From a virus (taxonomy: Duplodnaviria > Heunggongvirae > Uroviricota > Caudoviricetes), in IMG/VR virus record IMGVR_UViG_2671180770_000018: 4,131 bases of DNA; one strand, 5' to 3'. The position numbers were made by a program, and so were the translations under genes. Under the pieces are notes generated by a model. It ran no database searches, had not been told where the DNA came from, and worked only from the letters and a program-made list of their open reading frames with translations. Positions 1 through 4,131 of this stretch are shown here, one piece after another. The first letter of the stretch is position 1, and every line of letters begins with the position of its first letter.

Positions 1-324
1 ATGACAAAGGCTGGGATGCCAGAAAGCGTGCGTATTGCCTGAAAATCCAGCCAGCTACAGGGTCGTTCGCACGAAATCTTATTTATTCAACAAAGCCCTT
101 TTGATGTAGAAACTAAGAATGGCCTTCCCTCCACGGTTCAGCTATTTTATGAGGAATCTAAGGATAATGAACCTTTAGCGAATATACATTTTCAAGCAAT
201 AGGTTCTGGTTTTTTAACGTTTGTTAATGCCTGCCAGGAACATGATGACAACAGCTTAAAATTATTTGCTTCGCTGTTAATTTCACTTTCATATTCTAGT
301 GCCTACGCAGACTTATCAGAAACA

Positions 325-648
325 GTGTATATTAATGAAAATAATGAGAGCTACCTGAAAGCTCAGTTTGAAAAATTATCTCAACGTGATATGAAGAAGT
401 ACCTGGGAGAGATGAAGAGTCTGGCAGATGAGGGGGGAATGAAATTTGATGACTATCTGGATAAGATGTCATTTCTGGTGAATGAAGGAAAGCTCGAGCC
501 TGATATTTTAAGCAAAATGCGAGATGCTGCACCGAAATTAATTGCCTTTGCTAAGTCGTTTGACCCAAACTCAAAGGAAAAGATTAAAATACTTACAGAT
601 ACTTCTAATTTAATTTATGATTTATTCGGGGTTAAATCGGGGAAATAA
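325..648 (+). CDS. Hypothetical protein, helical and K/E/L-rich, start codon unresolved (frame open from nt 43)
   Basis: Frame +1 is open from nt 43 to the TAA at 646-648 (201 codons) but has no ATG/GTG/TTG before the GTG at 325, which is where the track ORF starts. No convincing Shine-Dalgarno precedes 325 (agaaaca). The translation is protein-like across the whole open stretch (e.g. YLKAQFEKLSQRDMKKYLGEMKSLADEGG). A hairpin plus T-tract follows at 686-720. No family recognised. Confidence 0.45.
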   Translation: MYINENNESYLKAQFEKLSQRDMKKYLGEMKSLADEGGMKFDDYLDKMSFLVNEGKLEPDILSKMRDAAPKLIAFAKSFDPNSKEKIKILTDTSNLIYDLFGVKSGK

Positions 649-685
649 TATGTGAAGTTCTTCGATGGTATGGAAGGCATTACAT

Positions 686-720
686 AAAAGAACCTAATAC
701 TTATTGGGTTCTTTTTTCTT
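686..720 (+). terminator. Candidate intrinsic terminator downstream of the 325-648 ORF
   Basis: aaaagaacc (686-694) is the reverse complement of ggttctttt (707-715), giving a 9-bp AT-rich stem with a 12-nt loop, followed by a T-tract running to 720. The stem is weak and the loop large, so this is tentative. Confidence 0.3.
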
Positions 721-919
721 CTATCAGTGCCATTAGCAGGAAGAGATATCACCGGAGTTTAATGTGTGATTTTTTATTTATCGTCGAACCTGGATTGTTT
801 ATCATTGTCCTTAACAAGGCTAACGGCTAATAAGATTATTTCCATCACTTCGTGAGAGCTTCATGCTTTGAGGGGATCTCATTTTTCTTTTGCAATGAGA
901 CAGGTGCTTCCTGTTGTTA

Positions 920-928
920 TGGTATAGT
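920..928 (+). promoter_or_regulatory. Candidate extended -10 promoter element (TGgTATAGT)
   Basis: tggtatagt at 920-928 matches the extended -10 consensus TGnTATAAT at 8 of 9 positions. No good -35 at 17-18 bp spacing. It lies about 440 nt upstream of the 1370 start, so any link to that operon is speculative. Confidence 0.15.
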
Positions 929-1369
929 ACCCCGCTATTGAGCCTCCTTCACAGTGATGCTGAATAACATAACTCAATGATATATCGATAAAATAATCTC
1001 TACATTTGAAAATGCACGGTAATTCTGAAATGCAAAAAATCAACCAAACCAGCGCAATGCCTGAAAAAACTGACGTTCACTGGAGTGGTCGGTTTAGCGT
1101 TGCACCAATGCTCGATAGGATGTACCGTTTTTGAAAAACAAGTAGTTATACACTTTGTGGGAGCCTATTGGGAACCTGTTATTCTTAGAAAGCATCATTT
1201 GCTCATCACTTCAATTGACCATGGTTAAAGCCAGCTATAAACTTGACAAACGAGGTAACTGGTTGCTTAGGCCCAAGTGGGCACACCATAAGAAGCTCAT
1301 GTTGGTGATGAAGCAACCCATGAAGTATCGAGAATAATTATAAAGTTCACTATCTTTGAGGTTTCTTAT

Positions 1370-1942
1370 ATGTTTTGCGAAGAAAAAGTAGCTCAAATGG
1401 CTGCATACCTACTTCTTAAGAGAGGTGGGCGCATGGCATATCTGAAATTGATGAAGCTGCTCTATCTGTCTAACCGCCAGTCGATTTTGAAGCATGGCAG
1501 GATGATCGGCGAAGATAGCCTTTACTCTATGAAATTTGGACCAGTCATGTCGAATACGCTGAACTTGATTCGCGGTAAGGCTGAAGGCATTGGTGACTAC
1601 TGGTACAACTTGATAGAGACGAACGGGCATAATGTATCGTTGCGTTCAGATCCGAGGGAAATGGATGCAGACGAGGTCTTTGATGAATTGAGTCGTGCAG
1701 ATATCCGGATTTTAGATGAAATCTATTCTCGGTATGGGCATATGAACCGATTTGATCTCGCAAATATGACGCATTTAGAAAGCGTTTGTCCAGAGTGGCA
1801 CGATCCTGGCAATTCTCGTAAGCCTATAGACCTGAAAGAAATGCTGATCAGTGAGGGTAAAAGCGAGGATGAGGCTAATCGCATAATTGGCAAAATGGAA
1901 GAATCTCAGAAACTTAAGGAATTTTCTTTGCAATTATCATGA
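1370..1942 (+). CDS. Panacea-domain (DUF4065; GepA/SocA/PanA-like) protein, putative antitoxin
   Basis: ATG at 1370 with GAGG at 1358-1361 and an 8-nt spacer; 190 aa. The N-terminal two thirds carry what I recognise as the Panacea/DUF4065 hallmark: LKLMKLLYLSNRQSILKHGRMIGEDSLYSMKFGPVMSNTL, then YWYNLIE, then HLESVCPEWHD. The C-terminal 35 residues are an acidic, probably helical tail. The TGA stop at 1940-1942 overlaps the next ATG (ATGA). Confidence 0.85.
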   Translation: MFCEEKVAQMAAYLLLKRGGRMAYLKLMKLLYLSNRQSILKHGRMIGEDSLYSMKFGPVMSNTLNLIRGKAEGIGDYWYNLIETNGHNVSLRSDPREMDADEVFDELSRADIRILDEIYSRYGHMNRFDLANMTHLESVCPEWHDPGNSRKPIDLKEMLISEGKSEDEANRIIGKMEESQKLKEFSLQLS

Positions 1943-2358
1943 CGGATTATCAGCCATACAGGAAAGGAACTGTGCTTGCCCCAACTGGACCATGCAATCA
2001 TCTTCATGTGATTTGTAATGATCCTGTTTATTACCCCGTTAACGATTGTTATTGTGTTTTAGTTGTTAATATTTCTAGTATCAAGGATGGTGTCCCCCAC
2101 GATCCGTCTTGCGTCTTGAATTCTGGTGATCATCGCTTTATCAAGCATCCAAGTTATGTTGTTTACGCTGAAGCTATAATTTGGCGAGTGGATAACATGG
2201 TTAGAAAGCAGCGATCGGGTGAGATTTCTGTTCATGATGATATGCCAGAAGCTACATTCAATAGAATTCTGGACGGTTTTGATATCTCTGATGAAGTTAC
2301 GCCAAAGAACCTTAAATTTAAAAATAAATATTGCGTATCATCTATTGATGATGAGTAA
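1939..2358 (+). CDS. Hypothetical protein translationally coupled to the Panacea gene; candidate toxin/effector with possible MazF/PemK-like fold
   Basis: ATG at 1939-1941 overlaps the upstream stop by 4 nt and has no Shine-Dalgarno of its own (nearest AAGGA is at 1916-1920, too far), which implies coupled translation; 139 aa, TAA at 2356-2358. By-eye similarity to MazF/PemK/Kid toxins: KGTVLAP near the N-terminus, CYCVLVVNISS (cf. MazF CLCVPCTTQ), VLNSGDH (cf. VVLSGQER), AIIWRVDN (cf. SIAWRARG), MPEATFNRILDGF (cf. APEELQLIKAKI). The N-terminal half is also rich in Cys/His. The fold assignment is unverified. Confidence 0.7.
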   Translation: MTDYQPYRKGTVLAPTGPCNHLHVICNDPVYYPVNDCYCVLVVNISSIKDGVPHDPSCVLNSGDHRFIKHPSYVVYAEAIIWRVDNMVRKQRSGEISVHDDMPEATFNRILDGFDISDEVTPKNLKFKNKYCVSSIDDE

Positions 2359-2397
2359 ACAACAGGAATTGTTTCGGTATAACTTCTGGAGTTTTCT

Positions 2398-2571
2398 ATG
2401 GAAGATCAAAAAGCAACCAAGCCACAGGTTAAGTTCGACACAATGAAAGCATTCGTAGGTATGGGTGCTGCTGTTGAAGTTCTGATGAAGGCTGCTCCTA
2501 ATGCGTTCACTCACGCTACTGTCTCTGGTAAAGAGCAGCAGGGTAAGCTTCGTCGTCTCAAAGCAGCATGA
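2398..2571 (+). CDS. Small hypothetical protein (57 aa), below the ORF track cutoff
   Basis: ATG at 2398 preceded by GGAG at 2388-2391 with a 6-nt spacer; open frame to TGA at 2569-2571. Translation: MEDQKATKPQVKFDTMKAFVGMGAAVEVLMKAAPNAFTHATVSGKEQQGKLRRLKAA. Codon choice (ggt, gct, cgt, ctg, aaa) looks like an expressed enterobacterial gene. A strong terminator begins 20 nt after the stop. The overlapping track ORF 2219-2446 is in another frame and lacks these signals. Confidence 0.5.
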   Translation: MEDQKATKPQVKFDTMKAFVGMGAAVEVLMKAAPNAFTHATVSGKEQQGKLRRLKAA

Positions 2572-2590
2572 TCATAGCTGGTGCTTTTTG

Positions 2591-2619
2591 AAAACCCGCC
2601 TTCAGGCGGGTTTTTTCTT
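2591..2619 (+). terminator. Rho-independent terminator, plus-strand oriented, possibly weakly bidirectional
   Basis: aaaacccgcc (2591-2600), loop ttca, ggcgggtttt (2605-2614): a perfect 10-bp stem with a GC-rich core, followed on the plus strand by a T-tract (ttttttcttt, 2611-2620). On the minus strand the hairpin is followed by caaaaag, so termination of the minus-strand operon here should be inefficient. Confidence 0.8.
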
Positions 2620-2900
2620 TAGTGATTTTCTTTGCCCTTCTGTTTGACTGTTCTGACCTGTTCCCACTCGATACGTCCTTCTTCTCGCCTTTTGTCTATG
2701 TATTCCGCAAGATCCTGAATATTGATGCAACGTTTTGCTTTTTGTGATGTGCCGATGCGATATGTTGGAACGGGCAACTTACAAGCGTTTGCTTTTGCTT
2801 CTGCCGTGGCTGGACTCATACCAAAGTACTTTTGGCTAACTGCTGAGAGTTCAATGTTTGGGGTATTGAATTCAGCCATCAGTAAAAACAAGGTGTTCAT
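2619..2900 (-). CDS. PrtN-family small DNA-binding protein (pyocin-activator-like; excisionase-like in enterobacterial prophages)
   Basis: The track ORF is 2619-2927, but the most plausible start is the third in-frame ATG at 2900-2898, which has GGAG (2910-2907) and a 6-nt spacer. The product then begins MNTLFLLMAEF and contains IQDLAEYIDKRREEG, both of which I recognise as PrtN-family features. TAA stop at 2621-2619. Confidence 0.7.
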   Translation of the reverse strand: MNTLFLLMAEFNTPNIELSAVSQKYFGMSPATAEAKANACKLPVPTYRIGTSQKAKRCINIQDLAEYIDKRREEGRIEWEQVRTVKQKGKENH

Positions 2901-2936
2901 AATTTTCTCCATCAAAACCGGCTGCACCCGGGAAAA

Positions 2937-3509
2937 TCATAATTCTGTGCTGGTGGCAGGAATTAATTTCTGCCAGATAGCGGAAACATATTTTGCCTGA
3001 TGACGGGCATCAGCCAGGGCGTTGTGCCGTTCGCCATCGAAAGGCATGTCCATTTTGGGGTCGAATCCGATGGAACGCCCAAGCGTAACGATCGTGCGTA
3101 CATCGTGGTCATTCCAGTATGCCCACGGGCAGATTTGTCCTGCTCGCTCATAAGCTCCACGTAAAATTACGTTGTCGAAGGTGGCTCCGTTACCCCAGAC
3201 TTTTAAATATTTCGTATTGTCTGCGTGCCGGTTAATGAAATGATTTAGTTCTGAGAGAGCATCGCTGATCGACAAAGTATCATCAATACAGATTGCAGCT
3301 CGTGCTTCAGGGCTTTGTTTCAACCACCACAGGATGGTATCGCCGTCAGGTGTAGCTCCTTGCTCCATAGCACTTTCCAGGCTAACAACCGTATAGAATT
3401 CTTGTCCGATGTCTCCGATTTCTGGAGTGAAGAACACCGCGCCAATGGAAACGATCGGTGCATCCTTATTTTTCCCCATCGTCTCAAGGTCGATCATTAA
3501 GTTGTTCAT
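2937..3509 (-). CDS. DnaQ-like DEDDh 3'-5' exonuclease (phage-type)
   Basis: The track ORF starts at a GTG at 3512, but the adjacent ATG at 3509-3507 has a strong Shine-Dalgarno, GGAGGTG (3521-3515), with a 5-nt spacer. The 190-aa product shows three exonuclease motifs: IDLET (Exo I, D and E), WGNGATFDN (Exo II, D) and HNALADA (Exo III, H and D). The start shares one nucleotide with the upstream stop (TGATG). Confidence 0.85.
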   Translation of the reverse strand: MNNLMIDLETMGKNKDAPIVSIGAVFFTPEIGDIGQEFYTVVSLESAMEQGATPDGDTILWWLKQSPEARAAICIDDTLSISDALSELNHFINRHADNTKYLKVWGNGATFDNVILRGAYERAGQICPWAYWNDHDVRTIVTLGRSIGFDPKMDMPFDGERHNALADARHQAKYVSAIWQKLIPATSTEL

Positions 3510-4075
3510 CACTTCACCTCCAGCGGCGGTTCCGGTAGCGGCATCCAGTGAGTTGCTTGCTCAATACCATTACCCGGCTTAATCGTTGCATCTCCGCGCC
3601 GAAAGGTGCTTCCGGTATAGCGTGCGGAGCATATTAGCGGTTCAACCTGAGAGCTATCGAAATTCACCGAAATAAGCACGTTCTGGCCCTTTTCAGGCAT
3701 TCGATCACTACAGCTTATCCAACTATCCGGAGTTCCCGGAGAGTTGCCATTTACATCGAAGTTTGGCTCTGCGTCCTGAACTAGGAGGATGTAACCATTT
3801 TTGGCTGTATCAAGTTCTAACGCCTCGGTGACGGTACCGAAATAGCGATTACCTAAATCAACATCACAAGTGCTTACATCAATGGAAACTTCCATGCCTT
3901 CGATTAATTCTGGCAAGTTGTAAGTTTGGCTTACAGGCTCTGCTTCCAGCGATACCAGTGCAATTCGTGCCAGTTCTTCCGCTTCTTCTGCTGGCAGTAC
4001 AACGTTGCTGCCAGGTCCGTATGTTTCGCGCCACTGCTGGATTGTCAGCAGTCGCCCTTTGGTAATAGTGATCAT
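3509..4075 (-). CDS. Phage DUF551-like protein
   Basis: ATG at 4075-4073 with GAAGGA about 8 nt upstream on the minus strand; 188 aa. The C-terminus reads ATHWMPLPEPPLEVK, which matches my memory of the conserved DUF551 C-terminal motif. The TGA stop at 3511-3509 overlaps the exonuclease ATG. Confidence 0.75.
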   Translation of the reverse strand: MITITKGRLLTIQQWRETYGPGSNVVLPAEEAEELARIALVSLEAEPVSQTYNLPELIEGMEVSIDVSTCDVDLGNRYFGTVTEALELDTAKNGYILLVQDAEPNFDVNGNSPGTPDSWISCSDRMPEKGQNVLISVNFDSSQVEPLICSARYTGSTFRRGDATIKPGNGIEQATHWMPLPEPPLEVK

Positions 4076-4131
4076 GCCGCGTTTCCTTCTTTCTTATTAA
4101 CAATCACACCGTCATATATTTCATTAAGGTG
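4072..4131 (-). CDS. 3' end of an upstream minus-strand gene, truncated by the window edge
   Basis: The minus-strand frame entering from 4131 is open for 19 codons (HLNEIYDGVIVNKKEGNAA) and ends at a TGA (4074-4072) that overlaps the DUF551 ATG in an ATGA arrangement. Only 60 nt are visible, so this is weak. Confidence 0.3.
   Translation of the reverse strand, partial: HLNEIYDGVIVNKKEGNAA

Follow-up and report, generated by a model that had tools for sequence, protein, structure and literature searches.

A start-less open frame at the edge of an Escherichia coli contig is best explained by an IS903-group element end abutting an interrupted DUF2713 gene

Open frames and genes in the window

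The window, that is, the whole stretch of 4,131 bp analysed here, is the complete draft contig CYAV01000139.1 of assembly GCA_001277695.1. At its left edge, frame +1 translates as MTKAGMPESVRIA over bases 1-39, meets a TGA at 40-42 and then runs through 201 sense codons (43-645) to a sole stop, TAA at 646-648. The earliest ATG, GTG or TTG codon after the TGA is the GTG at 325, the 95th codon of the open stretch, and the next ATG follows at 391. Frame +3 is also open, from base 3 to a TGA at 102-104, with no stop between. A preliminary description of the window had reported both readings, and all of its coordinates for the two frames proved correct.

We estimated how often such openings occur by chance. 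An open frame of 201 codons has a probability of ~2e-7 by base composition and was open in 0 of 20,000 shuffles; this stretch is real coding sequence and not a chance opening. Its first 94 codons, which lack any start, are mildly unusual (P ~0.007 by composition; 120 of 20,000 shuffles). In the 75 codons equivalent to window 100-324, start-type codons are absent from K-12, RM11911 and CAU16175, and O157 and KY1497 have one each. The lack of a start before 325 is thus accounted for by the sequence being the interior of a coding sequence, since K-12-type alleles likewise have no start-type codon there. The 33-codon opening in frame +3 is within chance (P ~0.08), and no homology was found for its translation.

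Downstream of this region, the window contains the beginning of dusA followed by prophage DNA. The first 104 nt of dusA (1012-1115) are identical to K-12 and homology then ends; the resulting truncated dusA ORF occupies 1012-1134 (MHGNSEMQ…APMLDRMYRF and a stop). A lambdoid prophage has integrated into the 5' end of dusA, and its early-left end makes up the remainder of the window (about 1116 to 4131). CAU16175 is the closest complete genome (98.7% identity over 85-4131); there, this prophage measures ~50 kb and ends with a tyrosine integrase beside a full-length dusA, the 5' end of which is phage-supplied. Within the prophage part of the window, a gene with a Panacea/SocA-like antitoxin domain (1370-1942, +; PF13274, E 2e-19) shares 4 nt (ATGA) with an overlapping ORF of 139 aa (1939-2358, +), for which RefSeq uses a later start giving 128 aa. 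The 139-aa product had no Pfam or PADLOC match and matched phrog_19071 (unknown function) only. In its layout, the interval 1370-2358 resembles a PanA-type toxin-antitoxin pair at a prophage end. The sole PADLOC match obtained, to ZorD (13 bits, E 0.004), was treated as chance. Between a 57-aa ORF (2398-2571, +) and a convergent PrtN/excisionase-like gene (2619-2900, -), we read from the sequence a GC-rich hairpin at 2591-2616 (AAAACCCGCC TTCA GGCGGGTTTTTT) flanked by A- and T-runs, which has the look of an intrinsic terminator working in both directions. The Rfam search gave no match in the window. The features around the left edge are listed in Table 1.

Table 1. Coordinates of the features at the left end of the window
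Feature	Position	Strand	Basis
Right end of an IS903-group (IS5-family) element	1..97	+	97/97 identical to complete elements; contig starts inside the element
Last 13 codons of the transposase, MTKAGMPESVRIA	1..39	+	In phase with CDS L004 374-1342, which ends …NRMTKAGMPESVRIA and a stop
TGA, natural stop of the transposase	40..42	+	CDS ends at L004 1342 and L001 4757 both correspond to window 42
IS terminal inverted repeat; reverse complement GGCTTTGTTGAATAAAT	81..97	-	Its 17 nt open the left end of complete copies as well
Target-site 9-mer CTTTTGATG, right-hand copy of the expected duplication	98..106	.	Intact alleles and an independent assembly
5'-truncated DUF2713 gene, yjbM type	98..648	+	PF10897 match; colinear with intact and K-12-type alleles
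107-aa ORF, CTT80055.1, internal fragment	325..648	+	DUF2713 profile positions 129-235 only
Terminator-like hairpin and T-run, 3' of the DUF2713 stop	686..715	+	Consensus scan match only

The insertion sequence end and the junction at 97/98

When the locus was compared with 5,426 complete E. coli genomes, matches began only at about 85-98 and lay under a gene annotated "DUF2713 family protein", and the first 97 bases matched IS5-family elements at other places in these genomes. Over their full length, these 97 bases match, with 100% identity, the right ends of an IS in E. coli ecoli019 (L001 4716-4812) and of an element on the Klebsiella pneumoniae plasmid pLVPK (L004). They were moreover present at a coverage of at least 80% in 2,237 plasmid records, mostly from Klebsiella. 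The complete copies in ecoli019 and pLVPK measure 1,054-1,056 bp. That of pLVPK (1,056 bp) begins with GGCTTTGTTGAATAAATCG…, finishes with …ATTTATTCAACAAAGCC and carries a CDS at 374-1342 for a transposase of 322 aa that finishes with …NRMTKAGMPESVRIA-TGA. This protein matched the IS5-family profile NF033579 (E 1e-104, 350 bits, cut-off 140) as well as PF13737 and PF01609, which identify the transposase of the complete copies as one of the IS5-family DDE type.

For assignment to the IS903 group we considered an inverted repeat GGCTTTGTTGAATAAAT(C) of ~18 bp and, for a complete element, a length of ~1,057 bp; the contig begins 97 bp from the IS end. The reverse complement of 81-97 is identical over its 17 nt to the left inverted repeat (IRL) of the complete copies. 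Both inverted repeats published for IS903B have the same terminal 17 nt, GGCTTTGTTGAATAAAT, and a 9-bp direct repeat was reported for that element (PMC10569121). The 50-nt IRL of IS903B equals the left-end 50 nt of the complete copies, but its right inverted repeat (IRR) agrees with the right end of the window at only 33 of 50 positions and diverges after nt 17-26 (PMC10569121). This low identity of the right end ruled out IS903B itself as the element in the window. As judged from these comparisons, the element is an IS903-group isoform that is related to IS903B; the copies in E. coli and on Klebsiella plasmids of the pLVPK type are identical to it. In ecoli019, the copy of this IS type is flanked on both sides by a 9-bp duplication, TCCATCACT.

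We then determined where the IS ends. By direct comparison the boundary lies at 97/98; from 98 on, the sequence tracks that of DUF2713 in RM11911 and CAU16175. The apparent start of the gene match at 85 in the BLAST results is due to a chance resemblance of 10 of 13 positions between the IS tip and the gene. The breakpoint falls directly after the outermost base of the IS inverted repeat (…CAACAAAGCC/; here and below a slash marks the junction), and on the gene side it lies within codon T53 (A/CT) of K-12 YjbM. In uninterrupted sequence, this place reads …CAATGTA CTTTTGATG TAGAAA….

With this boundary, frame +1 of bases 1-42 corresponds to the C-terminal end of the transposase and its natural TGA stop, bases 43-97 form the IS end, which is non-coding and contains the terminal inverted repeat, and from 98 onward the same frame is that of the interrupted host gene, undamaged up to its own stop at 646-648. 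That the transposase stop and the remnant share one frame is a 1-in-3 coincidence. The preliminary description had considered a nonsense mutation, a frameshift or a sequencing error around 35-110 in one continuous gene. The TGA in frame with a long open frame, together with a frame +3 that is open across 3-101, could indeed suggest such a lesion or a recoded TGA. However, the sequences that meet at 97/98, transposase and DUF2713, are unrelated. In the complete copies examined, the transposase normally ends at this TGA, which is thus no lesion. Frame +3 is within chance and lacks homology, and Rfam finds neither a recoding element nor any other RNA family in the window. We therefore give a single continuous gene, damaged or recoded, almost no credence. 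Selenocysteine insertion or readthrough at 40-42 was likewise rejected, given the unrelated genes on either side, the non-coding IS end at 43-97 and the lack of any Rfam match.

A different concern is that the first 97 bases were misjoined during assembly and that the gene is intact in the organism, since misjoins are likeliest at the very end of a short-read contig, which is where the IS segment lies. Against this, the breakpoint falls at precisely the outermost base of the IS inverted repeat, where a random misjoin would fall in only ~1/1,000 cases, and the 10 of 13 matching nucleotides before the junction include no shared exact stretch able to mislead a k-mer assembler. The same contig was moreover recorded for 2 samples, and the reciprocal junction exists independently in assembly GCA_045080185.1 (see below). 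An assembly artefact is thus highly improbable. The left end of the contig lies inside a multi-copy IS, so that only the final 97 bp of the element are present, and a short-read contig that ends just inside such a repeat is how an IS insertion usually appears in draft assemblies. The right contig end (4076-4131) comprises the 56 nt upstream of a DUF551 gene start, in prophage DNA of which related strains have several copies in each genome (each listed record shows up to 5 places). Both contig ends are probably repeat-induced assembly breaks.

The DUF2713 remnant and the deposited 107-aa reading frame

The translation of 43-645 matched the Pfam family PF10897 (DUF2713) with an E value of 9.7e-116 (385.9 bits, cut-off 27), and the match reached the end of the profile (235/235). 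The Pfam alignment starts at residue 7 of this translation, within the IS-derived part; we regarded this as an over-extension on the basis of the DNA and protein alignments. Indeed, protein homology starts at F54 of YjbM (FDVETKNGLPSTVQ…), and the 19 residues before it, KSSQLQGRSHEILFIQQSP, are IS-derived and aligned to nothing. In alleles of 318 aa, homology starts at about codon 136, and the part upstream of it is replaced by IS sequence. The remnant holds the last 2 nt of T53, codons 54-235 in K-12 YjbM numbering and the TAA at 646-648. Its 182 retained codons are colinear with all compared alleles and contain no internal stop or frameshift; at the DNA level, window 100-645, colinear with residues 54-235 of K-12 YjbM, is 95.4% identical to K-12. 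The NCBIfam collection holds no model matching the remnant. Window 100-645 also matches the phage-protein family phrog_29005 (E 5e-112), the function of which is unknown in PHROG; one likely reason for this match is that phage catalogues delimit dusA prophages too generously.

In uninterrupted genomes the locus has the order dinF-yjbJ-zur-DUF2713-dusA-pspG-qorA. Intact single ORFs of 318, 318, 330 and 340 aa are found in O157:H7, KY1497, E275a and M23314, respectively. In K-12, RM11911, CAU16175 and ecoli019, the PGAP annotation gives a "frameshifted" DUF2713 pseudogene of 986-992 nt, and the K-12 counterpart ORFs are yjbL (84 aa) and yjbM (235 aa from ATG, or 246 aa from GTG). Most of the literature retrieved under yjbM/yjbL concerns B. 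subtilis YjbM, a (p)ppGpp synthetase, which is an unrelated name collision. Homologues continue upstream of base 98, by 157 nt in K-12 yjbM and by ~400-470 nt in the intact alleles of 318-340 aa. The remnant has no start of its own and falls short of both complete forms, the 235 aa of yjbM and the 318-340 aa of intact alleles. It is start-less for 94 codons because the true start would lie on the far side of the IS.

These alignments settle several points of the preliminary description. Its suggestion of a disrupted gene was borne out insofar as this is real coding sequence of such a gene; the cause is an IS insertion and not a nonsense or frameshift mutation. Its alternative, an accidentally open sequence upstream of a short gene, holds for bases 43-97 (the IS end) only, as the frame is DUF2713 coding sequence from 98 on. 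It had also named homologues that begin near 325 or 391 as a sign that the upstream open frame is chance; in the alignments that we ran, homology reaches back to 98 and continues farther upstream.

We next considered the deposited product of this region. A 107-aa ORF at 325-648 was called on contig CYAV01000139.1 and is recorded as CTT80055.1. One could imagine a functional short gene here, an N-terminally truncated DUF2713 protein initiated at GTG 325 or ATG 391 and possibly transcribed from the IS end: the frame is intact up to its natural stop, gene callers report the 107-aa ORF, and IS ends can sometimes give outward transcription. However, GTG 325 and ATG 391 are internal domain codons (Val129 and Met151, at positions 129 and 151 of the 235 in the profile), and the product would be missing roughly two thirds of a protein of 318-340 aa. 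No Shine-Dalgarno-like motif occurs within 20 nt upstream of either codon, and a promoter scan of the + strand over 1-324 gave no promoter-like site. A short true gene starting at 325 or 391, as proposed in the preliminary description, is therefore very unlikely. From the absence of consensus signals, we infer that the IS-truncated remnant is very probably silent; the deposited CTT80055.1 is an artefact of gene calling on this pseudogene remnant.

The DUF2713 locus has a G+C content of 36% and varies strongly between strains. Among most E. coli genomes it is only 92-97% identical, and most genomes show 90-95% identity to the window; the best match reaches 97.3%, and one allele only 79%. Over 182 codons in five alleles, rough Nei-Gojobori estimates of dN/dS were ~0.33 against the divergent KY1497 allele and 0.5-0.8 among close alleles, which fits a weakly constrained, fast-evolving gene. 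Loss of such a variable gene through an IS is thus unsurprising. For DNA at a core position in E. coli, the locus is unusually polymorphic, and the differences look mosaic (window 98-1011 compared with L001-L010). The intact alleles differ by indels of a 10-aa repeat (D-x-x-KDKLDN) in their N-terminal part.

The far side of the insertion and comparison with known elements

The contig contains one side of the insertion only. If a complete IS had simply been inserted, the 5' half of the gene would read …ACT TTT GAT G/GG CTT TGT TGA into the element and its product would end in …CTFDGLC, followed by a stop; in GCA_001277695.1, the corresponding left junction would be …CAATGTACTTTTGATGGGCTTTGTTGAATAAATCG. 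By exact look-up, the predicted product of 58 aa ending in this way was found for two alleles, HGG2444485.1 and WP_274539981.1. The contig that encodes HGG2444485.1 (GCA_045080185.1, L013, 38 kb) has the order lexA-dinF-yjbJ-zur-yjbL, followed by yjbM'-IS. Its left junction is …TGTACTTTTGATG/GGCTTTGTTGAATAAATCGAAC… (in a longer reading …GAACAATGTACTTTTGATG/GGCTTTGTTGAATAAATCGAACTTTTGCTGAG…), lies in the context …CAATGTA CTTTTGATG/GGCTTTGTTGAATAAATCG…, and the contig ends 146 bp into the IS. The 9-mer CTTTTGATG is thus present at the junctions of two different assemblies, at window 98-106 and at L013 3160-3168. Taken together, the right junction of the window, …CAACAAAGCC/CTTTTGATGTAGAAAC, and the left junction of GCA_045080185.1 reconstruct a 9-bp target duplication of CTTTTGATG. 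As each junction belongs to a different assembly, the evidence strongly suggests, but does not prove, a simple insertion in the genome of the window.

Further look-ups gave the following negative results. None of the records among the 5,426 complete E. coli genomes covered at least 80% of a 101-bp junction query, and an exact 31-nt junction pattern gave 0 matches in a collection of species-representative genomes. A homologue search with the predicted chimeric product returned 26 short fragments only, and the partner contig of GCA_001277695.1 was not among them. P0002, which had been considered as a partner, was ruled out; it comes from another strain, in which an IS1 is inserted at CTTTTGATG.

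These results bear on a possible rearrangement, namely an IS-mediated deletion or inversion or a recombination between IS copies, after which the 5' half of the DUF2713 gene would be absent or located elsewhere. The window holds the right junction only, the same junction occurs in none of the 5,426 complete genomes and the partner contig was not found in the look-ups, all of which would be compatible with such an event. In contrast, GCA_045080185.1 shows the exact complementary left junction at the same 9-mer and in the normal gene order lexA-dinF-yjbJ-zur-yjbL-yjbM'-IS. A complementary left junction with the same 9-mer is the signature of simple insertion with target duplication, and we consider a rearrangement unlikely.

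As judged from the sequence comparisons, bases 1-648 of the window thus very probably represent the end of an IS903-group element abutting a DUF2713 gene that the element disrupted, and the event itself was probably the simple insertion of a complete IS. In this scenario, an IS903-group (IS5-family) element would have transposed into the E. coli DUF2713 gene between zur and dusA, which was already variable and is often a pseudogene, by the standard DDE mechanism with a cut at CTTTTGATG staggered by 9 bp, leaving a 5'-truncated gene remnant. In the genome of the window, the IS would accordingly be complete, and the 5' half of the gene would lie beyond it. Overall, the feature is ordinary, fully explained and of a known kind, an IS-disrupted gene at a contig edge.

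Other IS insertions are found at this locus. In GCA_003292835.1, the 9-mer CTTTTGATG (L012 1000-1020, corresponding to window 98-106) is directly followed by an IS1 (GGTGATGCTGCCAACTTACTG…), so that an identical target was used by two unrelated IS families, IS1 and the IS903 group. In another assembly (P0033), an IS1 junction follows …DNEPLA within the gene, and strain ABWA45 has an IS1 at the DUF2713 locus. In ecoli019, the same IS903-group element lies between DUF2713 and dusA (L001 3750-4821), 750 bp downstream of the present site, where the duplicated TCCATCACT corresponds to window 841-849. Since the insertions in GCA_003292835.1, P0033 and ecoli019 involve different elements or positions, they represent events independent of the one described here. 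The AT-rich interval is a recurrent IS target. A more speculative proposal, which we consider doubtful, is that CTTTTGATG might be a structural hotspot for transposition, used by the IS903 group here and in GCA_045080185.1 and by IS1 in GCA_003292835.1, and/or that the IS end might drive expression of a truncated, active C-terminal DUF2713 fragment.

The value of the case lies mainly in annotation clean-up: CTT80055.1 is an artefact, and the in-frame TGA is a transposase stop and represents neither recoding nor a lesion. It illustrates how contig ends inside repeats can yield open frames that look chimeric. No new biology is implied; the case is one more example showing that E. coli can dispense with the DUF2713 (yjbL/yjbM) region, which varies strongly and is a repeated IS target.

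The arrangement can be compared with two known systems. The yjbL/yjbM pair of K-12 occupies the same chromosomal place, between zur and dusA. There, a frameshift divides an ancestral gene of ~320-340 aa into yjbL and yjbM; in the window, an IS additionally interrupts the yjbM part at codon 53. On the side of the element, the complete copies share with IS903 and IS903B a length of ~1,055 bp, an IS5-family DDE transposase and a 9-bp target duplication. As far as the reports describe them, insertions of IS903 or IS903B in mgrB, cirA and wbaZ of Klebsiella inactivated chromosomal genes by simple insertion, as proposed here. In contrast to these Klebsiella targets, the gene interrupted here has no known phenotype.
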